A stretch of 55,874 nucleotides of DNA from an uncultured Christensenella sp. (GCA_964368435.1 CAYJBS010000003.1:1-55874); one strand, 5' to 3'; numbered from the stretch's first letter, positions 8,936 through 51,054 are shown. Numbers and translations: made by a program. Notes: a model not told the origin generated them from the sequence alone.

Positions 8936-9007
8936 GTGAAGAGAACAACAAAAACCATAGTTTTGATTGTGCTGACGGTGATTCTGGCACTGACCTTGTT
9001 GGCGTGT
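8936..9007 (+). other. Lipoprotein signal peptide with lipobox L-L-A-C (Cys codon 9005-9007)
   Basis: It has a basic n-region (KR..K), a 17-residue hydrophobic core, and then LLA|C, which fits the [LIVMF..]-[LIVM..]-[AGS]-C lipobox rule. Confidence 0.7.
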
Positions 9008-24000: not shown

Positions 24001-27000
24001 CAGCCAAATAAGCACTGCCGAAGTAGGGACATACACCATTCGCGGCAGGTTGGGACAAATAAACGATCCCAACATAGTTTTTGAGATTGTTGTGATAGAT
24101 CCCAAGCTATACGCCATAGATATCAACGGACAACTCAACCCGAAAGTCTATTATGACAGCTTGACTGCCGGCGTAAACACCTTCGGCGTTCGTCAAGTAG
24201 GCAAGGAGAATGAGGAGAACTTCCTCCCAAGCAACCTGGTACAACTCAGCGTCACCGATAATGGCGGCAATGTTGTTATAGGATACAATGAGTTCGAAAT
24301 AACAGAAAGCTATTGGGACATTGCAAACAAAAAAGTTATATTCACCTGCGTATATACTTTCCTTGACGAGAGTGACGATGTCGAAAGGCTCGCCGGAGGA
24401 TTGGGCGGTAGTCAGCAACTTTACTTTACAGTTTCGCTGCCGCTGAAGACTTATTTGTATTCGGCAATAGACGACACCATGGTACTGCGAGCCGGCAGCA
24501 ATGACGGCACCAATATCCTGAAGTTGACTCTTGGCGAACCACTAAAAATGTCGGATCTCCCCAACGCAATTATGAACTACGGCAGAGAGAACGCTTTCGA
24601 AGTACCTCTGCTTTGGGATTTGCGCACCATAAATGTCAACAAAGCAGGCACCTACAACCTTTTCGGATATTACAGAGATTATACCTCGTCATATCCCAAG
24701 AGCAAGAACCTTGAGGTAGTCATCGACAAGGTTGACATAAGCAGTGCGGTTTCCACGCTGTATTCCTTGACTCAGACGTATACAGGATTGTATATCGAAG
24801 TGGTGCCGGTACTGCCGGATGTGCTGCGAGAGCAAGGCAATTATGCGCAATTACGGCTGGGCAGAGACATAATAGTCGAATATCTGACCGAAGAAAAATA
24901 CATTCTTGAAGCTTTTGAGGAATTCAGCACGACACCGTACAAAGACGCAGGCGCGTATTTTGTCAGAATAACAGTTGAAGATTACAACACCTTCGGACAA
25001 AAAGTCTTCCGTATGCTCATAAATCCTATTGAGATAGACCCGAAAGACATCATATTTGAATACGGCGAAGGCGCACAAGATTGGGCGGTCGAGATTCCCG
25101 AATGGCCCGAAACAGAAGAAGCAAAGAACAGGCTGTTCTTCAATCAGTTCCGCGCCTACGCCAACCAAAATCTCGGCTCTAATGTTTCCGCAAGAGTGCG
25201 CGCGGCGGCTTTTGAGACCTTGAAGGAGAGTGTCGGTTTGACTGCGCAAAAGCTATTGACCGATCGTTATAACACCATATTAGCAAACAACTTCCCGCAA
25301 TACGACACTTCCGATGTCGCCGAAAAAACCACTATTGAGCTTTTAACGAAAGCTATGGTTTGGGAAGAGATCGCTCCATACGGAGTCAGTGGCGAGCTGC
25401 TAGTGCCCGGTTGGCCGAAGAATTCCGACGAAAAACAAGGGCTTTTTGAAGAGGCGAAACAACAGCTGGAAGAAAACAGCGGCGACAAAGAAGCCATGGC
25501 TCAGGCGTATGACAATCTGTTTGCCCTTGTCATAGCTCTGGCACAGGTGCTCTTACAAAACAGATTCGACGAAATACTTCAAACCCGTTTCCCGAACTAT
25601 CACGAGGCAACGGAATCTATGAAGACATTTATGATGATAGAAGCCAAGTCTATCGTGTGGTCCGAAATCACCCCCACCGGTCTAATTGGACAGCCATTAA
25701 TAGCCAACTGGCCGAGAACTATGAATGAAAAAGAACTGATGCTTGATGATGAGTATGAATACCTGCTTAACCTCTCGCTGGCAGGCAGCGAAAGAGAGCT
25801 GTTCATAAAGCAGGTCAAGGCATTGGCATACAACGAGTTGCTTGCCACGGTATACGCCACGGCGCAAACAAAATTGCAAACAAGCCTTGATACGATTCTG
25901 CAGATTTATTATCCGTTATATAACACATACGGCGACGAACAGAAAGCTCTGATTCTTACCGAGGCAAAAAGCCTTGTTTGGGACCAGGTTGTGCCGGGTG
26001 ACACCGTCACAGAAAAGAGCTATGTATATGACGGACAGGACCACATGCCCGTAGTTACGGGTATGCCGCAAGCAAAAATTATCGGTTGGCCACAAACTCC
26101 CGACGAAAAGGCAGCGCTGCTGGACTTTGCGCGTACCGAAAACTCCAACTTCACAGAAATCGAGGTACGGGCAAGGGCATTTGACAACCTTATGCAGCGG
26201 ATATATTCCAACGTTTTTGCCTTGCAGAAAATAACTGATATCTTGAATTTGGTTATTGAGGAATTCTATCCCGCTTACAATTTGCCTTCGACGCCCTATG
26301 AAGAAAGACAGCAGCTGCTCCTTGAAGCAAAAGCAAAGGCGTGGGACTCCAGAATAATTTATGCCGATACGGTGGAGGAGATTTATTATTCCTTCACATA
26401 CTGGTATGCCGACATGAGCAACAACGGCATGATTACCAACACAAGACCGCGTTCGGCAGGCACATATGAAATTACACTTTTGATAGATCCGCTGCTGAAC
26501 CGCAACTACCGTCTAAAAGCCGATGCTGCCATTATGACGACAATCAGCATAAGAATAGCAAATATAGACAAAAACTTCCTGAATGAGATGGTTTATAGCG
26601 GAACGGCTATTATGCCCGAATGCCCGGGAATGCACGACGAAAACGGCGATCTGCCCGAAGGCGTCAGCATAGAATATACGTATATAAAAGACGGCAGAGC
26701 AGTAGAGTACATAAGAGATGTCGGTCAATATTTCTTCACCGCTGTCGTAAACGGCGGCAACAACTATCCTTCGTGGCAAAGCGAATCACTACTCATAAAC
26801 ATATTGAAGAAGGACTTGATTATTGATGTCGGTTTGGTCGAAAGCGGCTATCTTGAAAAGACGAAAGCCTTCAACAGCAGCGTAACTTTTGACGGTGTAG
26901 TAGGCAATGATTTGCCCTCGATGTTCGGTTATTTGGTTTGCAACAGCCCTGTCACCGACAAACATATGGTAGGTGATTATGATATCACTTTCCAAGGCTT

Positions 27001-28019: not shown

Positions 28020-28049
28020 TTGACACCAAGAAACGCACTATTATATAAT
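28020..28049 (+). promoter_or_regulatory. Sigma-A-type promoter for the metallopeptidase-dockerin operon
   Basis: TTGACA (28020-28025), an 18-nt spacer, then TATAAT (28044-28049); both hexamers match consensus. GGAGG (28063-28067) and ATG (28073) follow closely, implying a short 5' UTR. Confidence 0.6.
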
Positions 28050-28072: not shown

Positions 28073-31000
28073 ATGAAAAAAGCATATAAGATATCTTTAA
28101 TAACTGCATTTGCGGTATTGTTACTTTTGCTTGTATTTTTGTCTTGCCAAGGCTACAACTATCCTCAAACACCGTCCGAAATAGTCGGAAAGAACACTTT
28201 CACACAAACTATGGTGGAGGCAGACGGCAATGAAGCAAATTTCTTTGCCAGCGGCGACGAGAAATTCAACTATCTTCATGACAAAGATGGTTACATTTTG
28301 TTGCGTGACAACGGCTATTTGGTCTATGCCCGAAACGACGAAGGCAGACCGCAACCGACAAAAGTCCGTTATGCCGCAGGCGCCGAAAGAATCAACTCTT
28401 TGCAAAAAATGGTGTACTCCGACATAAACTTCTCTGCCAATCCCGACTTGATTGCCCAGTATCCGCAGAGCGCTTCGGCGCCTTTGCTGTCACAAAGCAG
28501 TCCTTTCGAAGTGCGCCCGATAGTCAATATAGTCATTTATGTATGCTTTGCCGGAGAAAACGTCAGTTTGGACCGTCAGCAAATAGACAGCTTTTTGAGC
28601 GGACCGACAAATTCGCTTACTGATTATTATCAGCGCCTGTCGAACGGCAAAATAATGGTACATAACATAAACCCGTTGAACGGTGAGCAGATATACATCT
28701 ACAAAGATTCACAACCGCGCAGCTATTATCAGCTCAAGAGAGGTTCTGCCAGCAGAGCGGCAAGAGAGAGAACACTTCTCAACAATGCCGTCACAGCCAG
28801 CAGACAGTATTTTCAACTTCAAGGACTTGACATAGATTCCGACGATGACGGCTTCGTAGACGCCGTAAATTTCTTGATTGCAGGATCGCCATACAGTGAG
28901 TGGGGCGGCATGCTTTGGCCCCATTCGTGGGATCTCGACGACATCTCAAGCGGCAATTCAGCGACAATTTCGGGCTTGAAAGTCAAGAAATACTCTTTCA
29001 ATTTCCTCGGACAGCTTACCGTAGGGCTACTGGCTCACGAATTTGCGCATGTGCTGGGCGTACCCGACTTGTATCACTATGACGACGCCCATGTTGCCGT
29101 AGGCAACTGGGATCTTATGCACTTTGAGGCGGATAATCCACAATATATGACAACGCATTTGCGTTATAAATATTTGAAAGCAGTCGAAGAGGAACAGATA
29201 GGGATTATTGATTATAATGGCATCTATTCGCTAAAACCGACAACGCTTACTTCTCGCGGAGAGCTTGCGGCATACCGCATAAATTCCTCAAGACCAAACG
29301 AGTATTTTATGGTAGAATACCGCAACAACAATGTTACGGGTTATGACTCTTCTCTGCCTGGCTCGGGGCTCATCGTATACAGAATAAAACAAAATGTCAC
29401 AGGAAACTCACTTGCCAAAAAGAATGACAAGAACAATCCTGACGAATTATACATATTCCGTCCGAGAGTAGTCACCACGGGTACCGAGGCGAACAATTCT
29501 TTGGCAAACCTCAACAAAGCCTTTTTGTCGCCCAGCAACGCTGTTTTTTCTTCGCTTGGTGCCAGCCTTCAACAAAAACCTGCCTCAAGCTATGACCCCA
29601 CGACGATATACTTTACCGACGGCTTGAACAGCGGCATTGTCATCAATTCGCTTTCCATAAATGACGGCGAAATAGTTTTTGAGGTTCGACTGTCCGGAGG
29701 CAACAGCGTTGACGACGATTATTTTGTCAACAAGATTTCTCTGAAGAACGCAGGTCTGATCAACAACAGCCAATTCAGCGGCGTGTATGCCGATATGACG
29801 GTGGCGGACGGCATGGCTTTGAGCAACATGAACAGCATTGTTGCAGTCCTGAAGACCTCCGACAACAGAAAGACCGCCGAAATAAGGCTTGACAGAGCCA
29901 AGTTCATACTATCCTACGACCAAGAGCTTCGCAATTTTGCGGTGCGATTCATCATAAACGACAAGGGCAACCACAATCTTTCCACGGTATTTTATGACAA
30001 TGACTGGAAGAACTATGACGAACCGTCAAATATCGAACTTTATGTCGTAGACAGCGACAACGATATGATCAAGCTTGCATCATATTCAATAAGTCAACAA
30101 AACGCATCATGGCAATCCATACAGATGACCAATACCGTATTCAAACCATCGGTATCGGCATCTTTAAGAATGACTATAGGTATCCGAAATGACGGAAAAG
30201 CTTTTGCTTCATCAATTGATGACCTTCCGGAAGAAATAGATGATGTCATTGCTGCATCTGCCGGAGCGTATCATATGCTTATTCTCAAGAGCGATTTGAA
30301 GGTTACGCATTTTGGCAGTCTGAATCAGAACGAAAACAATGTAGGTTCCTGGGCAAACATCATAAAAGTAGCGGCAGGAGAGTATACCTCGTACGGACTT
30401 GATTTGATGGGCAGAGTATTTTATGCCGGCTCAGGAGCTGCCGCAGGAGTGGCGGCTTGGACGGACATAATTGATATATCAGCCGGAAACAGACATGTTG
30501 CCGGCGTCAAATCAAACGGCAGAGTAGAGGCTTTGGGAACAGGCACCGATGCGCTTGCCGTGGGAACTTGGGAAAACATAACAGCAGTGGCTTGCGGCAA
30601 CGATTTTACTGTCGGCTTGACAAAGAGCGGCACAGTTATTGTCACCGGCAATTTGGCAAACAAGACGCAAGCGACAAATTTACGCAACATAACAAAGATT
30701 GCCGCCGGCGATCAGCACATGCTGGCACTGGACCAAAAAGGCAGAGTCTTCGCCATTGGACAGGACTTGGAAGGCAACTGTGACGTGTCGGGATACTATG
30801 ACATTATCGATATCGCCGCAGGCAACTACCAATCGGTAATGCTGCGAGAGGACGGCAAGATTTTTTATGCCGGCGTCAACACCAATAGCACCAATGACAT
30901 TTCGCAAAATTTGATATATTTCAACAATGATTACGTAGACGTAACTTCATTGCTCTCACCTTTTGAAGGAAAAATAATGAAGACAGGTGAAAGCTATTTT

Positions 31001-34000
31001 CTCAATGTTGCAGCATTGCCGCAGAATGCCACCTACAAAAAAATAACCTACAAATCCAGCGATACTGCTGTAGCGGAGGTTACAGAGGATGGCGTTGTTA
31101 CGGCAAAGGGTGAGGGAGTCACCGTTATTGACGCTACACACAGAGGCTCTTCTCTGAACGAAAAAATCACCATAACAGTTGTGGCGCCTTATCAATCGGA
31201 ATCTATGATAGCCGCAGGCGACAGCCATAGCGTCATTCTTGGCAACAACGGCACTGTGACGGCGGCGGGCGCCAACAGCAAGGGACAGTTGAATGTCAAT
31301 ATGTGGGGCAACATAAAATTCGTTGCAGCCGGAGGAGACACTACCGTAGGAATTACTCCCGACGGCGGCATTCGGGTAGCAGGAGAATTGCAGGGAATAG
31401 GCGCCGAGGACTGGACGAGTATCAAGTATGTTTCCGTCAGCAAGCGCACCATTGTGGGCATAAACTCAGACGGTGTAGTATTCGCCGTGGGAGACGACAA
31501 TTATCATCAAGTTTCATCGGTTGAAGGCATATCCGGAGCAAAAAAGGTTACCGCAAGCCCGACGCATACCGTAATAACGTATGAATCGAACGTATTTGAG
31601 GCATACGGCAACAACAACAAAGGACAACTGGGCGTAAAGTATTGGAGAAATATTCTTCAAGTAGTGGCGTGTGAAGGCTTTACTCTCGGTCTTTCAGAAG
31701 AGGGCTATTTGCTTTATGCAGGGTACTCTCCGTATATAGAAAATATGTCCGTTGTTTCGCAATGGTATGACATAGTAGCCATTGACGCAAGCGCCGACCA
31801 TATCGTGGCTGTTGACAACAACGGCAAGGTATATGCGGCAGGCAACAATTCTTACGCGCAATCAACGGTAGGCAGTATGACGCAGGTCGGCAGAATTGCC
31901 GCAGGCGGCGAACATACCGTTGGCATAAATTTTGACGGCACTATCTCCGCCGCAGGACGCAACAATGACAGCAGGCTGGTACTGCCGGCGGTCAACGAAC
32001 TGCCGAGAGTAAATCTGGAGTCGGTCAACTTCAGTGACATAACTTTCGGAGTCAGGGTAGGACAAACAAAGAGAAGCAACCTTGTCTTCCGTCCATACAA
32101 CGCAACCGACAGAAAATCCGAGAATATTTCATATTCTTCCAATTTAAGCAACATTGCCACAGTCGACAGTCAGGGCAACGTAACGGGTATTGCCGTGGGC
32201 GAAGCCACCATCACCGCCAGAATCACGAAGAACGGCGGAGGACAAAATACGGTCAGCATGACGGTATATGTTTATGATACCGTGCAATCCATAAATTTTC
32301 TTTCTCCTCCGACAAAAAACATTTACGGCTACAAAGACAAGCTGGATTTGCTTGGAGGCAAAATAAACATTGATCTCGGCGGCAACAAGAGCTTTATCAC
32401 GACATTGACTCCCGAAATGGTAGTAGGTTTTGATACTGCCACTTCCACACTGGGCGACAGAGTAATAACCGTGCGCGAATATAACGCATCAACAACATTC
32501 CCAATAAAAGTCGTCGACACCGTAAAGAATATCAACATAAGCAATATGGCGAACATGAAGACGGTATACGACTATGGCGATGCCATAGACCTTTCCGGCG
32601 GTTGGATCGGCATAACGAGAGGTTACGGAAACGTTCAGATCGAGGAGAGGATGGATAACCTTCTTCTTAACGGCTCACTGGAAGTTTTTGCCGACACAAA
32701 CATTCTTGCGACGACGACGGTGACCTTGAAATATACCGACAAAATAGCCGCAGAATCGGGCATCTCGAATATTTTCTATTTGTCCTATCAGATTACTGTA
32801 TTTGACAAGGTCATAGGATTGACAGCAGAACTTGACAAAACAATCTTCAAATACGGCGAAGAGATTTTTGGCAACGGCAGACTTATTGTCAATATGAAGT
32901 CGGGCATAGATATTTATGAGGACATACAGAGCAAAGAAGAAATTGAGGAAGGTGTCGATTCTGTCATAACTATCGGCAACTACGACAAAAATATGCTTGG
33001 AGCGCAAATAATAAAAATAAATTATTTCAATCCTGATTTTGACATTCCTTTTGCTTATTTCCCGACACTCAATATCGAGGTGCAGGACTCCATTTCCGAA
33101 GTTGAGATCACCTCAATGATGCTTGACGATGCGGCGGTGTATGATAGGACGAAATCTATCGACAGCTCGATTACCGTACGTGTCAGCTTTTCGGGCGGCG
33201 CCATAATCGATGTCGGCTATGACGGCGCGCAGCAAATGTTTGCCAACATCATTCTTGCATTTGGAGAAGTCAGTGTCGGCGATCAGGAAGGTTTCGCAAA
33301 AGTAAGCATGGAAATCAAGGTACTGGAGCGGCTGAACAACAACATACAACACAACCGCAAGTATTATGACAATGATTTGAAAGTGCTTGGGCTGGGCAGC
33401 ATTTCTTCGCTAAAATTTGTTGGCGGCTCCCAATTTGATTATGGACAAAGCACAGACCTTATGTTGGAAATAACCACCGACAACGCGGCATTGTATCGAA
33501 TAAAAATTGATGATGCCAGATTGGGACTGGACAACAAATTGTTGACTCCGCAGACTGTCAGTTTCACATTGTTGGGAGAGACTGCCACAACAACCGTTAC
33601 TTTCAAGGATTATGTGACGGGCATATATACGCAATACTTGAATATAAGCGCCATTTACGGTCAAGCGTTGCAGCTTACCGTCTATAAAACCATGGCAAGC
33701 GGCGCAGAACTGGAGATTACAGACGGTTGGGACTCCAACTATATTGCGACGAAAGAGGGTATGCAGCAGGTCACCATAACTTATTTGAACAGTTATACTT
33801 ATACCATAAATGTTACGGTGTTGAACGCTATTGCTTCCGTCAGCGTAATCAGCTCGCCGCGTACCACTTACCAAATACACGAAGACTTGGATTTGTCCGA
33901 TTTCAGCATTCGTTTGACCTTTCAAAAAGGCGACAACGAAACGGTACCCTATGCTCTCGACAAATTCTCGGTGACTGGTTTTGACAAAAACCTTATCGGC

Positions 34001-34996
34001 ATTCAGATAGTAACCATTACTTTTGATTTGACAGGCGACTATTGGGAATATGCTTTCGAAGTAAGAAACCGCATCAAGCGTATTGAAGTAGACAGAGAAC
34101 TTTCAAAAACGCTTTATACGGTAGGCGAAGATCTGGACATTACTTTGATATGTGTCTACGAAAACGGCGACAGATCAGAGATATTCGACGAGTTCGTCAA
34201 CAACTTTGACAAAAGCTTGATAGGGCAACAACAGGTAGTCAATGTCATATATTGGGGAACCTATAGTACGGCTCTCATCGTCGAAATAATAGACGCCCCA
34301 AGAGAAATAACCATAAAAGCTCCGACAAAGAAGTATTATGAATACGGCGAGCCGCTGGACCTTGACGGGGGTGTGTTGACTATTATCACACAGACCGGAA
34401 AGCGCAAAGCAGAGTCATTGATTGCATACAGAAATTATATCTCCACCTTCAATCCGACTCCGCTTTCAAAGGGTGGGCAACAGCTTACACTGACAATACC
34501 GCAATATGAGGTGTCTGCCGGTTTCATAGTCTACGTAAAAGACAAGGCAACAAGCATTATGCTTCAACCCAAAGAAAATGTCACAGGCATAAAAATAGAC
34601 CGCAACAATACAAGAGTGCTGCTTGACGAAAGCACAACGCTTGCCACCTTCAACAATATGATTTCAAGCTATGCTACCATAAGCTATAAGTCGGGCGACA
34701 GCTATTTGGACTTGAATGCGCACCAAAACGACTTGATTTCTTCGGGAGTAAAGGTAGAAATCAGAAATTCCGAAGGCGCATTGTTGGAGACTTTCAGCAT
34801 CAATGTGAAAGGCGATGCAAACGGCGACGGTTTATTTGACGACAAGGATTTGCCTATGCTGGGACAGACGCTGCTTCTCGGCACAGAAAGCGCGCTATTC
34901 TATGCCGATTATGATTCCGACAGGGAATACACGCTGACCGATTTTGTCAACTGGGTAAAAAGAGCTGAAGAAAATCAAAGGGGTAACGCAGAATGA
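28073..34996 (+). CDS. Giant multidomain lipoprotein (2,307 aa) with M6/InhA-like zinc metallopeptidase, RCC1-like propellers, Big_2 modules, an Ig-like module array and a C-terminal dockerin
   Basis: The ATG lies 5 nt after GGAGG. The signal peptide MKKAYKISLITAFAVLLLLLVFLSC has Cys25 in a lipobox-compatible context. Domain motifs are listed in the sub-features. Two Big_2-like modules lie at ~30965-31185 (TAVAEVTEDGVVTAKGEGVTVIDAT) and ~32040-32280 (IATVDSQGNVTGIAVGEATITARI). Confidence 0.92.
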   Translation: MKKAYKISLITAFAVLLLLLVFLSCQGYNYPQTPSEIVGKNTFTQTMVEADGNEANFFASGDEKFNYLHDKDGYILLRDNGYLVYARNDEGRPQPTKVRYAAGAERINSLQKMVYSDINFSANPDLIAQYPQSASAPLLSQSSPFEVRPIVNIVIYVCFAGENVSLDRQQIDSFLSGPTNSLTDYYQRLSNGKIMVHNINPLNGEQIYIYKDSQPRSYYQLKRGSASRAARERTLLNNAVTASRQYFQLQGLDIDSDDDGFVDAVNFLIAGSPYSEWGGMLWPHSWDLDDISSGNSATISGLKVKKYSFNFLGQLTVGLLAHEFAHVLGVPDLYHYDDAHVAVGNWDLMHFEADNPQYMTTHLRYKYLKAVEEEQIGIIDYNGIYSLKPTTLTSRGELAAYRINSSRPNEYFMVEYRNNNVTGYDSSLPGSGLIVYRIKQNVTGNSLAKKNDKNNPDELYIFRPRVVTTGTEANNSLANLNKAFLSPSNAVFSSLGASLQQKPASSYDPTTIYFTDGLNSGIVINSLSINDGEIVFEVRLSGGNSVDDDYFVNKISLKNAGLINNSQFSGVYADMTVADGMALSNMNSIVAVLKTSDNRKTAEIRLDRAKFILSYDQELRNFAVRFIINDKGNHNLSTVFYDNDWKNYDEPSNIELYVVDSDNDMIKLASYSISQQNASWQSIQMTNTVFKPSVSASLRMTIGIRNDGKAFASSIDDLPEEIDDVIAASAGAYHMLILKSDLKVTHFGSLNQNENNVGSWANIIKVAAGEYTSYGLDLMGRVFYAGSGAAAGVAAWTDIIDISAGNRHVAGVKSNGRVEALGTGTDALAVGTWENITAVACGNDFTVGLTKSGTVIVTGNLANKTQATNLRNITKIAAGDQHMLALDQKGRVFAIGQDLEGNCDVSGYYDIIDIAAGNYQSVMLREDGKIFYAGVNTNSTNDISQNLIYFNNDYVDVTSLLSPFEGKIMKTGESYFLNVAALPQNATYKKITYKSSDTAVAEVTEDGVVTAKGEGVTVIDATHRGSSLNEKITITVVAPYQSESMIAAGDSHSVILGNNGTVTAAGANSKGQLNVNMWGNIKFVAAGGDTTVGITPDGGIRVAGELQGIGAEDWTSIKYVSVSKRTIVGINSDGVVFAVGDDNYHQVSSVEGISGAKKVTASPTHTVITYESNVFEAYGNNNKGQLGVKYWRNILQVVACEGFTLGLSEEGYLLYAGYSPYIENMSVVSQWYDIVAIDASADHIVAVDNNGKVYAAGNNSYAQSTVGSMTQVGRIAAGGEHTVGINFDGTISAAGRNNDSRLVLPAVNELPRVNLESVNFSDITFGVRVGQTKRSNLVFRPYNATDRKSENISYSSNLSNIATVDSQGNVTGIAVGEATITARITKNGGGQNTVSMTVYVYDTVQSINFLSPPTKNIYGYKDKLDLLGGKINIDLGGNKSFITTLTPEMVVGFDTATSTLGDRVITVREYNASTTFPIKVVDTVKNINISNMANMKTVYDYGDAIDLSGGWIGITRGYGNVQIEERMDNLLLNGSLEVFADTNILATTTVTLKYTDKIAAESGISNIFYLSYQITVFDKVIGLTAELDKTIFKYGEEIFGNGRLIVNMKSGIDIYEDIQSKEEIEEGVDSVITIGNYDKNMLGAQIIKINYFNPDFDIPFAYFPTLNIEVQDSISEVEITSMMLDDAAVYDRTKSIDSSITVRVSFSGGAIIDVGYDGAQQMFANIILAFGEVSVGDQEGFAKVSMEIKVLERLNNNIQHNRKYYDNDLKVLGLGSISSLKFVGGSQFDYGQSTDLMLEITTDNAALYRIKIDDARLGLDNKLLTPQTVSFTLLGETATTTVTFKDYVTGIYTQYLNISAIYGQALQLTVYKTMASGAELEITDGWDSNYIATKEGMQQVTITYLNSYTYTINVTVLNAIASVSVISSPRTTYQIHEDLDLSDFSIRLTFQKGDNETVPYALDKFSVTGFDKNLIGIQIVTITFDLTGDYWEYAFEVRNRIKRIEVDRELSKTLYTVGEDLDITLICVYENGDRSEIFDEFVNNFDKSLIGQQQVVNVIYWGTYSTALIVEIIDAPREITIKAPTKKYYEYGEPLDLDGGVLTIITQTGKRKAESLIAYRNYISTFNPTPLSKGGQQLTLTIPQYEVSAGFIVYVKDKATSIMLQPKENVTGIKIDRNNTRVLLDESTTLATFNNMISSYATISYKSGDSYLDLNAHQNDLISSGVKVEIRNSEGALLETFSINVKGDANGDGLFDDKDLPMLGQTLLLGTESALFYADYDSDREYTLTDFVNWVKRAEENQRGNAE
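28260..29520 (+). other. M6 (immune inhibitor A-like) metallopeptidase catalytic region; HEXXH at 29036-29050
   Basis: LLAHEFAHVLGVPDLYHYDD matches the M6 signature HEF-x-H-x-LG-[LV]-PD-x-Y. Upstream, FNYLHDKDGYILLRDNGYLVYA resembles the N-terminal part of the M6 domain. Confidence 0.8.
30240..30890 (+). repeat. RCC1-like beta-propeller block 1 (six blades visible)
   Basis: The blades are SAGAYHMLILKSDLKV, AAGEYTSYGLDLMGRVFYAG, SAGNRHVAGVKSNGRVEALG, ACGNDFTVGLTKSGTVIVTG, AAGDQHMLALDQKGRVFAIG and AAGNYQSVMLREDGKIFYAG. Confidence 0.75.
31200..31990 (+). repeat. RCC1-like beta-propeller block 2 (seven blades)
   Basis: The blades are AAGDSHSVILGNNGTVTAAGANSKGQL, AAGGDTTVGITPDGGIRVAG, KRTIVGINSDGVVFAVGDDNYHQ, THTVITYESNVFEAYGNNNKGQLG, CEGFTLGLSEEGYLLYAG, SADHIVAVDNNGKVYAAGNNSYAQ and AAGGEHTVGINFDGTISAAGRNNDSRL. 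Confidence 0.8.
32281..34545 (+). repeat. Array of about nine ~75-90-aa Ig-like modules (Big_3-like pattern Y.YG..LDL.GG.i)
   Basis: The pattern recurs as IYGYKDKLDLLGGKINI, VYDYGDAIDLSGGWIGI, IFKYGEEIFGNGRLIV, QFDYGQSTDLMLEI, TYQIHEDLDLSDFSIRL, LYTVGEDLDITLICV and YYEYGEPLDLDGGVLTI. Each is followed by ...G.q.v.i.y... and a v.V ending. Confidence 0.65.
34811..34960 (+). other. Dockerin module (two EF-hand-like Ca2+ loops)
   Basis: In GDANGDGLFDDKDLPMLGQTLL ... YADYDSDREYTLTDFVNWVK, both 12-residue loops (DANGDGLFDDKD and DYDSDREYTLTD) carry D/N at positions 1, 3, 5 and 12. This matches type I dockerin duplicated segments. Confidence 0.8.
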
Positions 34997-35724
34997 AAAA
35001 AGTCGCACTAATAATACTATTGATTATACTTGCAATGGTTGCGCTTTCGGGCTGCAAAAACAAGGAAATAAGAGCCGACGAAATAAAATTTATCGAAATT
35101 CGCGACGGTTCTTTCAAGACCACTTACGCCATTGACGAACAAATAGATTTTCGTAATGTATACATAGTCATCACCCTGAAGGACAACAAGGGCGAAGTCG
35201 TAGAGCATGTGACGCCCGAAATGCTCGAGGGTTTCGACACCTTCACAACGACTGCATCTATGGAAATGCGCACCATGCGTGTAAAATACAAAGGGATGTA
35301 CACCTCGAACTGGAACTATACCGTGGCAAGCCCCTATGCCATAAACACAAAGGCGAGACTGAGACTTTCGAGCGAAAAGGTTGACAACAAATACAAACTA
35401 AGCCTCAGTGTCGAATTGGACGAGATTCCCCAAATAAACGCGCTCCAAATGCAGGTGAGCTTCAATGACACAAGGCTTGTCTACAACAACGAGACCGAGG
35501 GAGGCTTGACGGGTTGGCAGAGCAATAAGGTATCGACAAAGAGTGGAGCCTTCGATATGCTCTATTACGCCGCGCCGGGTACTCAGCCGCTGAAAGAAGA
35601 CAGCAAGTTGACTACACTGGTCTTTGATATTTTGTCGGACGGTGACTTCAATTTGCAAATAACAAATATACATGTCAGCTTCGGTGAAGGCGATATTTAT
35701 CTTCCCGATGCCACGCTGAAATAA
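34993..35724 (+). CDS. Small lipoprotein with one Ig-like module and a cohesin-like C-terminal domain
   Basis: The ATG at 34993 overlaps the TGA of the upstream gene (ATGA), and AAAGGGG lies 9 nt upstream. The signal peptide MKKVALIILLIILAMVALSGC has a canonical LSGC lipobox. The module VTPEMLEGFDTFTTTASMEMRTMRVKY is paralogous to LTPEMVVGFDTATSTLGDRVITVREY in the upstream gene. Confidence 0.9.
   Translation: MKKVALIILLIILAMVALSGCKNKEIRADEIKFIEIRDGSFKTTYAIDEQIDFRNVYIVITLKDNKGEVVEHVTPEMLEGFDTFTTTASMEMRTMRVKYKGMYTSNWNYTVASPYAINTKARLRLSSEKVDNKYKLSLSVELDEIPQINALQMQVSFNDTRLVYNNETEGGLTGWQSNKVSTKSGAFDMLYYAAPGTQPLKEDSKLTTLVFDILSDGDFNLQITNIHVSFGEGDIYLPDATLK
35335..35721 (+). other. Cohesin-like domain
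   Basis: INALQMQVSFNDTRLVYNNETEGGL ... GAFDMLYYAAPGTQPLKEDSKLTTLVFDILSDGDFNLQITNIHVS follows the cohesin pattern (a.D/Q f.v.yD...l....v..G ... g.i.f.y......i..dg.la.i.F.v..). This is pattern recognition only. Confidence 0.55.
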
Positions 35725-35732
35725 GGAGCAAT

Positions 35733-37193
35733 ATGAAAATAATTCCCTATCCGCAAGAAATTGCAGAGAAACCAGGCTTTCTCAAAAAACCTTATGATGT
35801 CAAAGAGATTATCGATGCGAAAATGCAAAATGCAGAAGGCTACAAACTGGATATCGAAAGCGTCGGCATAGTCATCTCGGCAGCAACGGCTCAAGGCATA
35901 TTCTATGGCAGACAGACGCTTGCTCTTCTCGAAGAGGAATACGGCGATGCTCTTCCTTTTGTCAGTATAACGGACTTTCCGAAATATTCGTACAGAGGTT
36001 ATATGCTCGATTGCTCCAGACATTTCTTCCCCATAACACTGATAAAAAAGCAAATAGACATCATGGCGGTGCTGAAACTCAACAAGTTTCATTGGCACCT
36101 GACAGACGATCAAGGGTGGAGAATACAAATTGACAAATATCCGCTGTTGACGGACATCGGCTCAAAAAGAGCGCAAACCTCAGGCGACGGCAAAGAAGTC
36201 GAGGGTTTTTATTCGAAAGAAGAAATCCGAGAAATAGTCGCTTATTGCGCCGAGAGGTTTATTGATGTTGTGCCCGAAATAGATATGCCGGGACATTTCA
36301 AGGCGGCGTTGGCGGCTTATCCGCAATATTCCTGCCGAGAAGAAGCCATGAAAGTAAGCGAGGGCTTCGGCATTTCGCCCGATATTCTTTGCGCCGGAAA
36401 GGAAGAGGCGTACGAATTTTGTTTCAATATCCTCGATGAGGTAGCCGAGCTTTTTCCGTACAAATATATTCATTTGGGCGGTGATGAGGCGCTCAAGCTG
36501 TATTGGCTGCAATGTCCCGATTGCCAAAGGAAGATGAAGGAAAACGGCTTGAGAGACGAAGAGCAGTTGCAGGGTTATTTTATGTCGAAAATGACAGAAC
36601 ACCTAAACAAAAAGGGAAAGACGGTCATAAACTGGAACGACGGCATGTTGGGCGGCAACCTTTCGGGAGACATGGCAGTGCAATACTGGAAGGAAACCAA
36701 GGCATGCAAAGAGGTAGCAAAAAAAGAAGGCGCAGAAGGTCGTCAAATCATCCTCAGCCCGTTTTTTAGTTTTTATCTCGACTATCCCCACGGTATGACA
36801 TCTTTGAAAAATACATATAATTATAAAATCGATGCAGAGATTGCTCCAAGCGTCATCGGCATGGAAGCGCCACTCTGGACGGAGCACGTTACGGACGAAC
36901 AAACAGTATGGCAAATGACATACCCACGCTTGGTCGCGCTGGCAGAGATAAGTTGGAGCGGCAAGCGAGATTATCAAAGTTTCTTGACAAGACTGGATAT
37001 TTTTTATAATATCTTAGATAGGCGAAAAATTTCTTACAGCAAAAATCCCGATCCGTTTTTTATTCCTGGCAAGCTGTCAATGTTGAAATTTTTAATAAAC
37101 GCCTTCAGAAAGGTCGAAAAGAGCAACACCGCCGCCATGAATAAAACAAAAAAACTCTTAAGACAAAAATATAAGAAAGACAAGGAGCTTTGA
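35733..37193 (+). CDS. GH20 beta-N-acetylhexosaminidase (no signal peptide)
   Basis: AAGGAG lies 4 nt upstream. The GH20 hallmarks are present: YRGYMLDCSRHF, FHWHLTDDQGWRIQI, IDMPGH and the catalytic HLGGDE. Confidence 0.93.
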   Translation: MKIIPYPQEIAEKPGFLKKPYDVKEIIDAKMQNAEGYKLDIESVGIVISAATAQGIFYGRQTLALLEEEYGDALPFVSITDFPKYSYRGYMLDCSRHFFPITLIKKQIDIMAVLKLNKFHWHLTDDQGWRIQIDKYPLLTDIGSKRAQTSGDGKEVEGFYSKEEIREIVAYCAERFIDVVPEIDMPGHFKAALAAYPQYSCREEAMKVSEGFGISPDILCAGKEEAYEFCFNILDEVAELFPYKYIHLGGDEALKLYWLQCPDCQRKMKENGLRDEEQLQGYFMSKMTEHLNKKGKTVINWNDGMLGGNLSGDMAVQYWKETKACKEVAKKEGAEGRQIILSPFFSFYLDYPHGMTSLKNTYNYKIDAEIAPSVIGMEAPLWTEHVTDEQTVWQMTYPRLVALAEISWSGKRDYQSFLTRLDIFYNILDRRKISYSKNPDPFFIPGKLSMLKFLINAFRKVEKSNTAAMNKTKKLLRQKYKKDKEL

Positions 37194-39859
37194 TGAAGAA
37201 CTATTATAATATGTCCGCAAAAGAAACGCTGACAACCTTGCAATCAAACGAAAACGGTTTAACAGAACAAGAGGCGCTTGCCCGTCTGGAGAAGAACGGC
37301 AAGAACGAACTGAACGAAGGCAAGAAAAAATCACTCATCGCAAAGTTTTTTGACCAGATGAAAGATGTGATGATTATCGTGCTTTTGGTGGCGGCAGCCG
37401 TCAGCGCAGTTATCGCAATAATTCGAAGAGAATATTCGGAACTGGTAGACAGCGGCATAATACTCATTATTGTGCTCGTCAACGCCTTTATCGGTTTGGC
37501 GCAGGAGAGCAAAGCCGAAGCGGCGCTGGAAGCGCTAAAGAACATGAACAAACCTCTCGCCAAGGTATTGCGCGGCGGCGAGGTACGAAAAATAAAGAGT
37601 AGCGACATAGTTGTCGGAGATATTGTCATACTTGAAGCAGGCGACAGTGTTCCTGCCGATATGAGACTGCTTTCCGGCGCATCGCTGAAGATAGAAGAAG
37701 CGGCGTTGACAGGCGAATCTGTACCGTCGGAGAAAGACATGGGCATCATCGAAAAAGAAGAAGTGCCCCTGGGAGACCGTCATAACATGGCGTTTTCTTC
37801 CGGCGCAGTATCTTATGGCAGAGGGCAGGGCGTCGTCGTTGGCACAGGTATGAATACCGAAGTCGGCAAGATTGCCGAAATGCTCAGCCAAAGCGATGAG
37901 CAACAGACACCGCTGCAAGTGCAACTTGCCAAGACCGCCAAGATACTCAGCATTATGGTGCTGGCTATTGCCGCCGTCATATTTGCTGTTGCCGTCATAA
38001 AAGCCGGCTCTTTTGCGGCAGACGTCATCATCGATTCCTTTATGACCGCCGTTGCCATAGCCGTGGCGGCTATTCCCGAAGGCTTGCCCGCAGTTGTCAC
38101 AATAGTGCTTGCAATAGGCGTTCAGCGCATGAGCGAACGAAAAGCAATCGTACGAAATCTCCCTGCTGTCGAGACGCTTGGTTGCTGCCAAATTATTTGC
38201 TCGGACAAGACGGGAACGCTTACGCTCAACCAAATGACCGTAAAAGAGCTATACACACTTCACAAAGGCGCCTTCACTGCAGACACACACGAAGAAAGCG
38301 CAAAAGACTTGCTCAACGGCATGGTGCTCTGTAACGATACGGTAATAAGCGGAGACAAACTGTTGGGCGACCCGACAGAAACGGCGCTTGTAGCTTATGC
38401 AAAGAATGTCGGCATAGATGTCGTCGCACTCAACAATCAAAACAAGAGAATTGACGAAATACCCTTTGACAGTTCAAGAAAGCTTATGAGTACCGTCAAT
38501 GAGTCATCCGAGGGTAAGACGGCATATATAAAAGGCGCGCCGGATATTTTGATTGGCAAATGCCTATATATCCAAGACGGCGACGCTGTTCGTGAAATCA
38601 CAGAAGAAGACAAAAAAGCCATAAGCAAAGCCAACAACGCCATGGCGACAAAGGCGCTGCGCGTACTTGCCGTGGCAATAAAGAAAAAAAATCTCGATAC
38701 CAAAACACTTGAAAGCGACATGGTTTTTGTAGGACTGGTAGGCATGATAGATCCGCCCAGACCGGAAGTCAAAGAAGCCGTAAGAGTTTGTAAAAAAGCA
38801 GGCATGACGGCTATTATGATAACAGGAGACCATATTGACACGGCATCGGCGATAGCAAAAGAGACGGGCATTCTCGACAAAGAGGAACAGCTTGTCATCA
38901 CCGGCGCTCAGCTTGATAAGCTCGGTGAAGAGGAATTCTTGAAAGACCTCGAAAAATACAGAGTCTTTGCTCGTGTAAGCCCCGAAAACAAGGTACGCAT
39001 CGTCAAGGCATTCAAATCGAAAGGTTATGTCGTGGCTATGACAGGTGACGGCGTCAACGACGCTCCGTCCATCAAGCAAGCCGACATTGGCATCGGCATG
39101 GGCATCACAGGTACGGACGTCAGCAAAGGCGCTTCCGACATGGTGCTTGCCGACGACAACTTCGCTACTATCATAAACGCCGTTGAAGAGGGCAGAAAGG
39201 TCTTCTCCAACATAAAGAAAGCCATTCAGTTCTTGCTTTCGGCAAACATAGCCGAGGTGCTTTGCCTGTTCATTGTCACGCTGTTTATGCCGCCGGAAGT
39301 ACATTTTTTGACACCGGTTATGATCCTTTGGGTAAACCTTGTCACCGACTCGCTGCCGGCATTGGCGCTCGGTATGGAAAAGGCAGAAAACAATGTCATG
39401 GATCAAGCGCCCCGCAAGCCCGGAGCCAGCCTTTTTGCAGGAAAAACCGGCGCCGACATAATTGTGCAGGGCATTATGCAAACGATACTTGTACTTGGTT
39501 CCTTCTTTATCGGGTATTTTGTGCTTGAGGATTATTTCCACATAGACGACAGACTGCCGATGACAATGGCGTTTGTTACGCTTTGTATGATTCAGCTCTT
39601 CCACGCTTACAACATGCGTTCGCCGGGCGAAAGTCTCTTCAAGAGCAATCCCCTTTCGAACAAATTCCTCAACCTTTCGTTTATTGTCGGTTCGGTACTG
39701 CTTGCCGCGGTGATAGTGCTGCCCTTTATGCGCGGCGCATTCAGCACGGTGTTTTTGCCTTTGCCGGCGCTTGCCATAAGTCTGGGTCTTGCTTTTATGA
39801 TTATACCTTTCGTAGAAGTGCAAAAATTAATGTATAACATTGTTATGAAGAAGAAATAG
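37193..39859 (+). CDS. Calcium-translocating P-type ATPase (type IIA, SERCA/PMCA-like)
   Basis: I prefer the ATG at 37193 (AAGGAG at 37182-37187); it overlaps the upstream TGA by 1 nt, and the track's TTG at 37190 is one codon earlier. The motifs are CSDKTGTLT (Asp codon 38204-38206), TGES, MITGDH and GDGVNDAP. The Ca2+-type TM4 IPEGLPAVVT and TM6 LWVNLVTDSLPALALG are also present. Confidence 0.95.
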   Translation: MKNYYNMSAKETLTTLQSNENGLTEQEALARLEKNGKNELNEGKKKSLIAKFFDQMKDVMIIVLLVAAAVSAVIAIIRREYSELVDSGIILIIVLVNAFIGLAQESKAEAALEALKNMNKPLAKVLRGGEVRKIKSSDIVVGDIVILEAGDSVPADMRLLSGASLKIEEAALTGESVPSEKDMGIIEKEEVPLGDRHNMAFSSGAVSYGRGQGVVVGTGMNTEVGKIAEMLSQSDEQQTPLQVQLAKTAKILSIMVLAIAAVIFAVAVIKAGSFAADVIIDSFMTAVAIAVAAIPEGLPAVVTIVLAIGVQRMSERKAIVRNLPAVETLGCCQIICSDKTGTLTLNQMTVKELYTLHKGAFTADTHEESAKDLLNGMVLCNDTVISGDKLLGDPTETALVAYAKNVGIDVVALNNQNKRIDEIPFDSSRKLMSTVNESSEGKTAYIKGAPDILIGKCLYIQDGDAVREITEEDKKAISKANNAMATKALRVLAVAIKKKNLDTKTLESDMVFVGLVGMIDPPRPEVKEAVRVCKKAGMTAIMITGDHIDTASAIAKETGILDKEEQLVITGAQLDKLGEEEFLKDLEKYRVFARVSPENKVRIVKAFKSKGYVVAMTGDGVNDAPSIKQADIGIGMGITGTDVSKGASDMVLADDNFATIINAVEEGRKVFSNIKKAIQFLLSANIAEVLCLFIVTLFMPPEVHFLTPVMILWVNLVTDSLPALALGMEKAENNVMDQAPRKPGASLFAGKTGADIIVQGIMQTILVLGSFFIGYFVLEDYFHIDDRLPMTMAFVTLCMIQLFHAYNMRSPGESLFKSNPLSNKFLNLSFIVGSVLLAAVIVLPFMRGAFSTVFLPLPALAISLGLAFMIIPFVEVQKLMYNIVMKKK

Positions 39860-39861
39860 AT

Positions 39862-41508
39862 ATGGAATATAAATTATTGACACCTGCCCAAGTATGGCAG
39901 GAATTCAATGACAGCAAAGAGGCATTGAATGCGCAAACGCTTGAAGAAGGTCAGGTTGACGGATTATCCGTCAGCTACGCTTCTTTCAACGCGCTTTCCG
40001 TTGCCGACGGAGAGGTGACAGCAGTTGCGCAAATCACCCGTGCAAGCGCAAGCAACAAGTATATTCTGATTGTCCAAAACTACAAAAAAGCTGTGCAACA
40101 AGAAGTTGTTGCCGATTTGGCGCGAAAGGGTTATACCGTGGTGGTGCCCGACTGCAGCGCAATCGGCGAAAAGTATAAAACCGTCTTCCCCAACTCGCTT
40201 GCTTACGGAAACGTCGACCAAGCAGGAGAACATCTAACCTATGTCTGCCCTACGGCGAAGGACACTTGTCAATATCTTTATTCCGTAATCGTGCGCCGCA
40301 CGATTACTTATATCATCGAAGCGTTGTCAGGCAAAGAAATACTGCTTATGGGCATAGGCGACGGCACAGAAGTAGCCATGCAGGTGGCAGGTATGGACGA
40401 ACGCATTTGCGGACTGACTCTCATAAACGGAGCCGGCTACAAAGAGTACAAAAGCTTGAACAAATACGGCAACAAGCAGGAGCTTCAAATCAACCAAAGA
40501 CTGCTTTGCTGGCTGACTGGCGTAGCATCGGTTGCTTATGCGAAACATGTGAAGGCGCCGGTGTTTGTGGCGATTTGTTCGAACAGCAAGAGTGCCGACA
40601 TCGACAGATTGTCGAACCTTTTTGGTCTGTTCCAAGAAAATCATGCTCGCATAAACATTACGCCAAGAGGAGTCGACACTATCCGCGCCGAAGCCTACAA
40701 ATCAATGCTCATGTGGATTGACGATGTTTTCAACAAAAACGACATTCCGTCACGCCCCAAGATTGATATCAGAGCCAGCGAAGAGAATCTATATCTGGAT
40801 ATTTACGGCGACAGCTGCCGCAACATAAAAGAAATCACAGCTTATTATTCCTACGGCGAGTACGATCATCTCGTGCGCAACTGGTACGAACAAAAATGCG
40901 AGGCTGTCAGCAAAAGCCAATATTTGGTCAAACTGGACATCGTAAATGACGAGGGTCCGATATTTGCCTTTTGCCAAATAACCTATAAAGACGGCTTCTC
41001 GATGTCCTCTTTTGAGGACTATACCGAATTGGACGGGTTGCAACTCAAAAAAACTGCAGACGAACTCAGTCGAATAGTATACGAAGGCGCCGCAGGCATC
41101 GGGGGCTTTTCTGAAGAAAGCAACAACGACATATTCCTTGAAGACGGTATAGCGCAGCAGCTGACACCGTTGGGACTAAAGGGCGTCACAAGCGCCTCAG
41201 GCGAACTGGTAAACTACGAAATAGGTAGACAGGCTGAGTATAACAAGGGCAGGATATTACAAATTGATGTTTATTCGCAAAAGGAAGTCAACCTCGGAAT
41301 AAAACTATTGGTGAAATTCGACGAAACCGTGGAAGAATACGTTACAGAAGGGTTTTTGAAAGGCTCAAGCGGCGCATTCATCAGCCAAAAATTTTCCGCC
41401 AATGAATTCAAGAACAGCAAGTTGATGGCGCTGGAAGACTGGGACAAAGTAAAAGCCATAAAGATTGACGGGAAAGAAATAATTATTGGCAAGATATTGT
41501 TTATTTAG
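39862..41508 (+). CDS. Hypothetical protein with an AXE1/alpha-beta-hydrolase-like N-terminal half and no obvious nucleophile
   Basis: The ORF is 548 aa and starts 2 nt after the ATPase stop. The N-terminal layout (LTPAQVWQEFNDSKEAL ... ILIVQNY ... GYTVVVPD ... LLMGIGDGTEVAMQVAG) resembles acetyl-xylan-esterase-type hydrolases. The nucleophile elbow reads G-I-G-D-G rather than G-x-S-x-G. There is no signal peptide. Confidence 0.7.
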   Translation: MEYKLLTPAQVWQEFNDSKEALNAQTLEEGQVDGLSVSYASFNALSVADGEVTAVAQITRASASNKYILIVQNYKKAVQQEVVADLARKGYTVVVPDCSAIGEKYKTVFPNSLAYGNVDQAGEHLTYVCPTAKDTCQYLYSVIVRRTITYIIEALSGKEILLMGIGDGTEVAMQVAGMDERICGLTLINGAGYKEYKSLNKYGNKQELQINQRLLCWLTGVASVAYAKHVKAPVFVAICSNSKSADIDRLSNLFGLFQENHARINITPRGVDTIRAEAYKSMLMWIDDVFNKNDIPSRPKIDIRASEENLYLDIYGDSCRNIKEITAYYSYGEYDHLVRNWYEQKCEAVSKSQYLVKLDIVNDEGPIFAFCQITYKDGFSMSSFEDYTELDGLQLKKTADELSRIVYEGAAGIGGFSEESNNDIFLEDGIAQQLTPLGLKGVTSASGELVNYEIGRQAEYNKGRILQIDVYSQKEVNLGIKLLVKFDETVEEYVTEGFLKGSSGAFISQKFSANEFKNSKLMALEDWDKVKAIKIDGKEIIIGKILFI

Positions 41509-41516
41509 GAGAAGAA

Positions 41517-42053
41517 ATGGAAAAAAGAGCAAAGGGTTTTATAGTATTTGTTATTATAGTTTGTCTTGCTTGCATGGCAACGGCTTTCTATATAAGCAGG
41601 TACAAACTCGTAGTTTTTCCTATCGAAGGTTCCTCGATGGAACCCAATGTCCATGACGGGGATAGGGTGCTGGTATACCGCACAAAAAAAATCAAACATG
41701 GTGATGTTATTGTATTTAATTCGGTGTCATTCAATAAACGCCTAATAAAAAGAGTCATCGGTCTTGAGGGCGACACAATAGAAATAAGACATAATGACAC
41801 CCAAAATATCTACCAAATTTACCGCAACGGAGTAAGACTCGAAGAGGATTATATAAACGAGCCAATCACCAGAACTTATTACGAAATGTCTATTGTCGTG
41901 CCTAAAAACCAGATATTTTTTCTCGGCGACAACCGCAATGTGTCGCAGGACAGCCATATGGGTGAAGTTACCGAGGACATATCGCTGATTGAAGGCAAGG
42001 TCATCATGCGTTATAAGGGGATAAATGTGAACTTCCTTGAGATAAGCGCATAA
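41517..42053 (+). CDS. lepB: Signal peptidase I
   Basis: AGGAG lies 5 nt upstream and there is an N-terminal TM anchor. The SPase I boxes are present: GSSMEP (Ser), GDRVLV, IKRVIGLEGD (Lys) and GDNRNVSQDSH. Confidence 0.93.
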   Translation: MEKRAKGFIVFVIIVCLACMATAFYISRYKLVVFPIEGSSMEPNVHDGDRVLVYRTKKIKHGDVIVFNSVSFNKRLIKRVIGLEGDTIEIRHNDTQNIYQIYRNGVRLEEDYINEPITRTYYEMSIVVPKNQIFFLGDNRNVSQDSHMGEVTEDISLIEGKVIMRYKGINVNFLEISA

Positions 42054-47615: not shown

Positions 47616-47678
47616 AGAATACCGTTTTCACAAAGCAGACTCTGCTATGAAATCTTTCCTCTATTTAGGTTGTTTCAC

Positions 47679-47709
47679 CCGCCGAAAATTCGGCGGATGT
47701 TTTCATTTT
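47679..47709 (+). terminator. Rho-independent terminator after cca
   Basis: CCGCCGAA (47679-47686) pairs with TTCGGCGG (47689-47696); the GC-rich core is CCGCCG/CGGCGG. A T-rich tail ATGTTTTCATTTT follows. Confidence 0.65.
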
Positions 47710-47786
47710 GTTTTAATCGAATATACAACAAACATAAGCGGGCAAGTAAAAATATCATTGTCCATAAATACAATAAAAATTGCCTA

Positions 47787-47815
47787 TTGACACCCTTTTG
47801 CGCATATGATAAAAT
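47787..47815 (+). promoter_or_regulatory. Sigma-A promoter with extended -10 for the gntR-GRE operon
   Basis: TTGACA (47787-47792), a 17-nt spacer, then TAAAAT (47810-47815). The -10 is preceded by TG at 47807-47808 (TGnTAAAAT). Confidence 0.6.
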
Positions 47816-47831
47816 TGTGGTAATACCACAA
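47815..47831 (+). promoter_or_regulatory. Perfect 8-1-8 palindrome, putative GntR-family operator
   Basis: TTGTGGTA-A-TACCACAA has the core tgGT-aat-ACca. This fits the t.GT-N3-AC.a type of operator described for FadR-like GntR regulators. It abuts the -10 box and covers the expected transcription start. Confidence 0.55.
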
Positions 47832-47843
47832 GCGGGAGAGGAC

Positions 47844-48548: not shown

Positions 48549-48561
48549 GGAGGCAAGAATA

Positions 48562-51045: not shown

Positions 51046-51054
51046 GATAGAATT

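Follow-up and report, generated by a model that had tools for sequence, protein, structure and literature searches.

We have analyzed a stretch of 55,874 nucleotides (nt) from an uncultured Christensenella sp. (GCA_964368435.1 CAYJBS010000003.1:1-55874), which in its whole length is called here the window. It contains a very large gene coding for a metalloprotease of the M6 family that ends in a dockerin, and this gene overlaps a small one coding for a predicted lipoprotein that ends in a cohesin. The two products probably form a dedicated pair, in which the lipoprotein would hold the protease on the cell surface. The genes and their expression signals are listed below; positions are counted from the first letter of the window, lengths are in amino acids (aa) and ORF stands for open reading frame.

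28020..28049, + strand: sigma-70-type promoter-like site TTGACA-18-TATAAT, 12/12 (consensus scan, a pattern match alone)
28073..34996, + strand: M6 protease gene, 2307 aa (ORF), with RCC1, Big_2 and Big_3 modules and a C-terminal dockerin
34977..34983, + strand: purine-rich, Shine-Dalgarno-like AAAGGGG for the lipoprotein gene, within the last protease codons (sequence)
34993..34996, + strand: ATGA stop/start overlap, protease TGA with lipoprotein ATG (direct reading)
34993..35724, + strand: Big_3-cohesin lipoprotein gene, 243 aa (ORF), proposed membrane-anchored dockerin receptor

The overlap that the initial annotation had placed at 34993-34996 was read directly in the two ORFs. Besides, the AAAGGGG motif is found 9 nt 5' of the lipoprotein ATG, inside the protease gene, and the arrangement is that of a coupled pair, with overlapping stop and start codons and a ribosome-binding site within the upstream gene. 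The promoter-like site is located 24 nt ahead of the protease ATG. We scanned the junction between the two genes for terminator-like sites and found none. It is reasonable to infer from this layout that both genes are co-transcribed and translationally coupled.

The cohesin lipoprotein and the dockerin-tipped protease

The 243-aa protein can be divided into three parts.

34993..35055, + strand: lipoprotein signal peptide with lipobox L-S-G-C and Cys21 (direct reading, family alignment)
35071..35346, + strand: Big_3-like immunoglobulin-like (Ig-like) module, aa 27-118 (BLASTP to the protease; Pfam Big_3 in the family)
35347..35721, + strand: cohesin module, aa 119-243 (Pfam, Foldseek, family profile)

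Its N-terminus, MKKVALIILLIILAMVALSGC, is a textbook lipoprotein signal (MKK...ALSGC), with a basic n-region and a hydrophobic h-region followed by the pattern [LVI][ASTVI][GAS]C with a conserved Cys. We have aligned 34 members of the family. Cys21 is invariant in all of them and the Gram-positive lipobox pattern is matched by 31, so that the 243-aa protein is a predicted lipoprotein, that is, a substrate of signal peptidase II. The module that follows resembles residues 1402-1468 of the protease itself, with 32% identity and an E value of 2e-5 in BLASTP, and Pfam Big_3 is matched by 19 of the 34 members.

The C-terminal half is recognized as a cohesin by several approaches. Pfam Cohesin (PF00963) matches aa 136-232 with 25.2 bits, above the cut-off of 24.1, and reaches E<0.01 in 7/34 family members, the best at 4.1e-10. 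An AlphaFold2 (AF2) model predicts for this half the nine-stranded beta-sandwich (jelly-roll) of the cohesin fold, with nine main strands at aa 122-237, although only at moderate confidence (block-mean predicted local distance difference test, pLDDT, of 63-89; 7-sequence alignment). When this model was compared to the PDB with Foldseek, the best match was 2jh2 (E 1.5e-7, target template modelling score, TM, of 0.71, probability 1.0). It was followed by 2w1n, 2vo8 and 2o4e, cohesin-like modules of C. perfringens, and then by cellulosomal cohesins; 5nrk, 6kgd and 3ul4 were also among these further matches. In the same way, a 22-sequence profile of the C-terminal half retrieved only cohesins from the PDB, the best being C. 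perfringens NagJ (E 2e-6). The 243-aa protein alone found nothing relevant among the PDB sequences with phmmer, and it was only by the family profile that the cohesins were reached. In NCBI, one homologue is already annotated as a cohesin domain-containing protein, and the domain call is for this reason not new. The claims of the initial annotation on this protein, namely an LSGC lipoprotein, a cohesin-like C-terminal half and an N-terminal Ig-like module resembling one of the peptidase, are all borne out by these data.

The partner module is located at the C-terminus of the protease.

34811..34960, + strand: dockerin module, aa 2247-2296 (direct reading; profile against PDB dockerins; Pfam top family)
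34814-34849 and 34907-34942, + strand: the Ca-binding loops of the dockerin (direct reading)

Specifically, the last 60 residues contain two 12-residue EF-hand-like loops, DANGDGLFDDKD (aa 2248-2259) and DYDSDREYTLTD (aa 2279-2290), whose starts are 31 residues apart and which are followed by the helix-like stretches LPMLGQTLLL and FVNWVKRAEE, respectively. This is the two-segment structure of dockerins, in which each 12-residue Ca2+ loop has Asp or Asn at positions 1, 3, 5 and 12 and leads into a helix. Both loops are kept in the orthologues. We examined the homologous C-termini found at related loci (designated here by L numbers), and Dockerin_1 was the top Pfam family in 8 out of 8, three of them above the cut-off (L012, L016 and L018 with 26, 27.3 and 31 bits). 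A profile made from five orthologous C-termini had solved dockerins as its top matches (2y3n_B, E 5e-5; 1ohz_B, E 1.7e-4; 2ccl_B, E 3.2e-4). The copy in the window is itself sub-threshold in Pfam, while its homologues and the profile do match, and membership therefore rests on homology and not on the window sequence alone. On homology and motif we accept the protease C-terminus as a dockerin, as the initial annotation had it. Searching a collection of 5.8 billion proteins with dockerin profiles gave 1 and 5 matches, mostly short fragments, and missed the known orthologues, so this search is uninformative about other carriers of this dockerin type.

At its other end, the protease has the following features.

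28073..28147, + strand: N-terminal signal sequence MKKAYKISLITAFAVLLLLLVFLSC, with a borderline lipobox
28577..29383, + strand: M6 catalytic domain, aa 169-437 (NCBIfam TIGR03296, 128.1 bits against a cut-off of 110.8)

The assignment to the M6 (InhA-like) family is supported by TIGR03296 and by the HExxH zinc motif, which reads AHEFAHVLGVPDLY (HEFAH, within an HExxHxxGxPDxY pattern); Pfam Peptidase_M6 was borderline, with 21.4 against a cut-off of 22. After the catalytic domain come RCC1 propeller repeats and Ig-like modules of the Big_2 and Big_3 types (Pfam, including RCC1_2).

The signal sequence ends in VFLSC, with Leu at -2. This motif is accepted by a lenient lipobox pattern of the PROSITE type but not by the stricter Gram-positive pattern. 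Outside the window, the Cys was found in L001 alone, which is the closest of the relatives whose protease N-terminus can be read. It is missing in 4 of the 5 other lineages where this end could be read: Phe takes its place in L002/L006 (LLSF-QGY), Ser in L010 (FVAS-QGY) and Met in L012 (FFAM-EGF), and L017 has no Cys. Since the Cys is absent from these four, N-terminal lipidation is excluded as the conserved anchor. Lipoprotein status is probably not conserved for the protease, and what the lineages share appears to be a protease with a Sec-type signal, only the cohesin protein being anchored by a lipid. These substitutions also bear on a two-point tether, in which the protease would be lipidated at its N-terminus and its C-terminal end pinned to the same membrane, forming a surface loop. 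This explanation would profit from the lenient match of VFLSC in the window and L001. Besides, a comparable L-L-A-C, also with Leu at -2, is found in the 6332-aa protein of the neighbouring gene, so the organism may tolerate such a lipobox. Yet the motif fails the stricter pattern, the Cys is not retained, and a loop would keep the catalytic domain against the membrane. We consider the two-point tether unlikely. Thus, the earlier proposal that both partners are lipoproteins holds for the 243-aa protein, with its LSGC and invariant Cys, and not for the protease, whose borderline VFLSC has a Cys that is not conserved. The associated picture of an N-terminally lipidated protease pinned at its far end loses support, anchoring by the C-terminus only being likelier.

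Recurrence of the gene pair across lineages

A word-indexed search with the 243-aa protein retrieved only six close homologues, with 47-99% identity. In all those with readable context the order was the same: a gene of about 6,330 aa, a protease of about 2,300 aa, the 243-aa gene, a GH20 and a P-type ATPase. The nearest genomic records were metagenome-assembled genomes labelled Christensenellales bacterium and Clostridia bacterium. An exhaustive search with a hidden Markov model (HMM) over 1.84 billion representatives gave 248 matches at E<=1e-3. Among them were about 70 full-length proteins (220-256 aa, 50% clustering) with lipobox, Big_3 and cohesin in this order, and the longer, more distant matches were true multi-cohesin proteins (Pfam Cohesin, 137-296 bits). 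In the case of a metagenome scan, the 34-member alignment was too diverse and a closer subset led to 4 loci.

We have found a dockerin-ended M6 protease gene directly 5' of the lipoprotein gene in L001-L006, L008/L012, L010, L013, L016, L017 and L018. The pairing holds in about ten lineages and down to 24% identity between the lipoproteins, the distant members being L010 (43%), L012 (42%), L013 (about 29%) and L016 (about 24%), with L017 and L018 paired as well. The overlap itself, as ATGA or GTGA, was found in L001, L002/L006, L004/L005, L010, L013, L016 and L017. The other junctions consist of a 1-nt overlap (L003), an 11-nt overlap (L018) and a 15-nt gap (L012/L008). In all lineages there is a GGAGG-like, purine-rich motif just 5' of the lipoprotein start.

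In one case the two proteins are a single one. The 2343-aa ORF P0067 (L015, positions 535-7566), present in one metagenome contig of the Joint Genome Institute (JGI) only, contains first the M6 protease and the dockerin. A linker of about 75 aa leads from there to a pair of hydrophobic segments with a KRRKPSRHR loop between them; MVAC, which resembles a lipobox, comes next, and Big_3 and the cohesin are last. The positive loop would be inside the cell and therefore both modules would face outward. As read from this single contig, P0067 is a fusion of the Rosetta-stone type. It has consequences for the idea that cells aggregate through the dockerin at the tip of the protease, bound by the lipoprotein of the cell next to it. 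The sequence does not forbid such contacts, and nothing speaks directly for them. In the fusion, however, a single chain contains both modules. The conserved overlap suggests that the partners assemble where they are made, and two small domains are unlikely to protrude beyond the wall of their own cell. Together these points make docking between cells highly improbable.

Exactly one dockerin and one cohesin were found per locus, counting the window and the flanks of the related loci. A search of the 56-kb window with Pfam, and of its six-frame translation with subfamily HMMs, detected no others. These numbers are relevant to the possibility that the lipoprotein is a general anchor, i.e. a one-cohesin anchoring scaffoldin for several dockerin proteins encoded elsewhere, the protease being one client. 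The anchoring scaffoldins of cellulosomes do serve many clients, and the cohesin half changes faster than the dockerin next to it. In addition, in a study of Cellulosilyticum lentocellum, pull-downs gave two further candidate partners of a single cohesin protein (PMC13487519). On the other side, the pairing and the overlap are kept across distant lineages, a fusion exists, and neither the 56-kb window nor the flanks of related loci contain a second dockerin. Overall, a general anchor seems to us distinctly unlikely.

We have also compared how fast the different modules diverge between lineages. The Big_3 module of the lipoprotein keeps 61-91% identity and the cohesin half 27-76%, making the latter the fastest-evolving part of the locus. 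In close relatives, the dockerin and the remainder of the protease are conserved to about the same degree, and in the most distant one the dockerin is above the protease average. The best-conserved stretch of the cohesin half across the family is the beta8 region, with an SDG..D..LP motif. The contrast between Big_3 and cohesin would fit a situation without mutual binding, in which the dockerin-like segment is a Ca2+-dependent stabilising cap and the lipoprotein binds substrate or cell wall, or acts as a chaperone or inhibitor via Big_3. The degenerate second Ca loop of L017 points in the same direction and, to our knowledge, no partner has been demonstrated for many of the cohesin-like and dockerin-like modules outside cellulosomes. 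The side-by-side presence of a dockerin and a cohesin would then be a coincidence, yet it is kept down to 24% identity and was once turned into a fusion, and the beta8 region is precisely what the cohesin half conserves best. We regard the absence of mutual binding as improbable. The initial proposal of a dedicated, co-expressed pair is thus backed by the recurrent gene order, the overlaps, the P0067 fusion, the promoter-like site upstream and the lack of a terminator-like site between the genes.

A proposed lipid-anchored receptor

The interpretation that we favor is that of a dedicated non-cellulosomal pair, in which a lipid-anchored receptor with a single cohesin would hold the secreted protease on the cell surface by its C-terminal dockerin. 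We give it a probability of roughly 0.6. Both genes would be transcribed together from the promoter at 28020-28049, and their translation, probably coupled via the ATGA, would tend to give roughly equal amounts of the two proteins, which may bind one to one. The 243-aa protein would be exported, lipidated on Cys21 and exposed on the outer face of the cytoplasmic membrane, with the Big_3 module as a short stalk and the single cohesin as a socket. The 2307-aa protease would be exported via an ordinary signal sequence, presumably cleaved off, and its C-terminal dockerin, once Ca2+ is bound, would plug into the cohesin of the lipoprotein. The protease would then be held non-covalently by its C-terminus, with the array of Ig-like modules and beta-propellers as a stalk and the catalytic domain away from the membrane. 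Such a role would be similar to that of the sortase/LPXTG or SLH anchors of other large surface proteins.

Several observations weigh against this interpretation. The dockerin of the window scores under the Pfam Dockerin_1 (PF00404) cut-off of 22.9 (13.7 bits with the whole protein and 20.2 with the fragment), and the AF2 model of the last 158 residues of the protease, made from a 2-sequence alignment, has a pLDDT of 42.9 and is unusable. Between lineages the dockerin keeps 49-89% identity, far above the cohesin half, and the faster divergence of the cohesin is not obviously predicted by simple co-evolution. The proteases of the window and L001 keep a Cys in a lenient lipobox, so that in this strain an additional lipid anchor, at the N-terminus of the protease, may exist. 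With its 220 or so residues, the receptor may be too short to span a thick cell wall. Finally, L020 and L021, both on short contigs, have no intact protease upstream. In L020 there is no upstream ORF within 98 nt; in L021 (GCA_017629695.1) a 59-codon dockerin remnant with the second repeat is found at 369-548, preceded by an unrelated gene on the opposite strand, as a result of either gene decay or a chimeric short contig.

A broader proposal is that the 243-aa protein founds a family, undescribed and fairly widespread, of receptors with a lipid anchor and a single cohesin (about 240 aa, made of Big_3 and cohesin, with the invariant lipobox Cys), and that this family co-occurs with giant dockerin-tipped M6 proteases in Christensenellales-like Clostridia. 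We give this about even odds.

Cohesin-dockerin modules outside cellulosomes are well known. By fold and by profile, the solved cohesins nearest to this one belong to the C. perfringens system of the NagJ/GH84C cohesin and the NagH dockerin (PDB 2jh2, 2o4e, 2ozn, 2w1n, 2vo8), and both systems have non-cellulosomal modules of the Ca2+ type on large secreted enzymes of Clostridia. In C. perfringens, the cohesin and the dockerin are reportedly both on secreted glycoside hydrolases and join enzymes together (the work of Adams et al. in 2008). Here, in contrast, the cohesin is on a small dedicated lipoprotein, the dockerin is on a metalloprotease, and the genes overlap. A closer precedent for the gene arrangement is found in C. 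lentocellum, whose genome has one cohesin protein, ClcC, and one dockerin protein, ClcD, encoded by the adjacent genes Clole_2599 and Clole_2598, and their heterodimer was demonstrated experimentally in a 2026 paper (PMC13487519). In that system, which is cellulolytic and not described as lipid-anchored, ClcD is a GH5 cellulase and the carbohydrate-binding modules are on ClcC. Here, by contrast, a 2307-aa M6 protease would be the client of a cohesin protein that is a predicted lipoprotein.

There is also a likeness to the anchoring scaffoldins of cellulosomes, in which a cell-bound cohesin captures a C-terminal dockerin and thereby fixes a large extracellular assembly to the surface, as the lipoprotein is predicted to do here. 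ScaE of Ruminococcus flavefaciens is anchored via a sortase signal. Those of C. thermocellum (SdbA, OlpA and OlpB) attach by SLH domains (PMC5817068). The predicted N-terminal lipid on a single-cohesin protein is different from both, and a full-text search found no paper describing a lipoprotein cohesin anchor, an absence of evidence only, given the incomplete coverage of the literature. Cellulosomes have been defined by a scaffoldin with at least two cohesins together with dockerin-bearing glycoside hydrolases (PMC13487519). Cellulosome membership was considered and rejected: the locus has just one cohesin and a protease as its client, no glycoside hydrolase there bears a dockerin, and the adjacent GH20 has neither dockerin nor signal peptide. 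As for the protease, it shares with InhA of Bacillus and PrtV of Vibrio an M6 catalytic domain above the TIGR03296 cut-off and the HExxHxxGxPDxY pattern. Unlike them, it is about three times longer and has RCC1 propellers, an Ig-like stalk and a dockerin end; no paper on a dockerin in an M6 family metalloprotease was found in a literature search of incomplete coverage.

Neighbouring genes and biological meaning

Upstream of the pair there are two giant ORFs. The first (3-8906) is cut by the start of the window and codes for at least 2967 aa. The second (8936-27934) codes for 6332 aa. Its GTG start at 8936 is preceded by a GGAGG, its signal has LTLLAC at the end, and its length is conserved in L001 and L002. 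The two proteins are similar only at 22% identity over about 800 aa; neither showed a meaningful Pfam match, internal repeats or a dockerin, and the last 644 aa of the second had no match among the PDB sequences. Just after the pair (35733-39859) come a GH20 beta-hexosaminidase without signal peptide and a P2-type cation ATPase, which are syntenic in close relatives and absent from some distant loci. The idea that the ATPase supplies Ca2+ to the dockerin was dropped as unsupported, because there are loci that keep the pair without the ATPase and the GH20 (L017) or without the ATPase (L018). Next to them is a gene that accompanies the lipoprotein gene more faithfully.

39862..41508, + strand: 548-aa protein with no Pfam, NCBIfam or PDB match and no signal peptide

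In each of the lineages that we examined it is conserved together with the lipoprotein gene, with 30-54% identity to the downstream genes of L010, L016, L017 and L018, and it is kept also where the GH20 and ATPase genes are not found (L016, L017, L018). This protein may be an accessory component of the system. A type I signal peptidase gene (41517-42053) precedes spoIIE in all long related contigs (L001, L002, L010, L012, L017), which could reflect housekeeping synteny or a dedicated peptidase. Further downstream, SpoIIE, TilS and Hpt form a locus of the type of spore-forming Firmicutes. The region 47670-51987, with a GntR/FadR-type regulator, a PFL-like glycyl-radical enzyme (827 aa) and a radical-SAM activase, looks like a common metabolic operon with no relation to the pair.

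The binding between cohesins and dockerins is among the tightest protein-protein interactions and is widely reused in biotechnology. Outside cellulosomes, we know of very few cohesin-dockerin pairs with an assigned job. The locus described here is a clear and testable case: overlapping genes code for one socket and one plug, the pairing is found across many lineages, and there is one fusion. It suggests a function, to hold a giant surface protease on the cell via a lipid anchor. If this is true, it would be a third route by which Gram positives fix a cohesin-dockerin assembly, beside SLH domains and sortase, and one that serves a protease and not the degradation of plant cell walls. If the binding is confirmed, an anchoring mode would be added to those of Gram positive surface proteins, a set of naturally diverged and presumably orthogonal cohesin-dockerin pairs would become available, and it would become easier to approach what the uncharacterised, very large surface proteins of Christensenellales-like anaerobes do.

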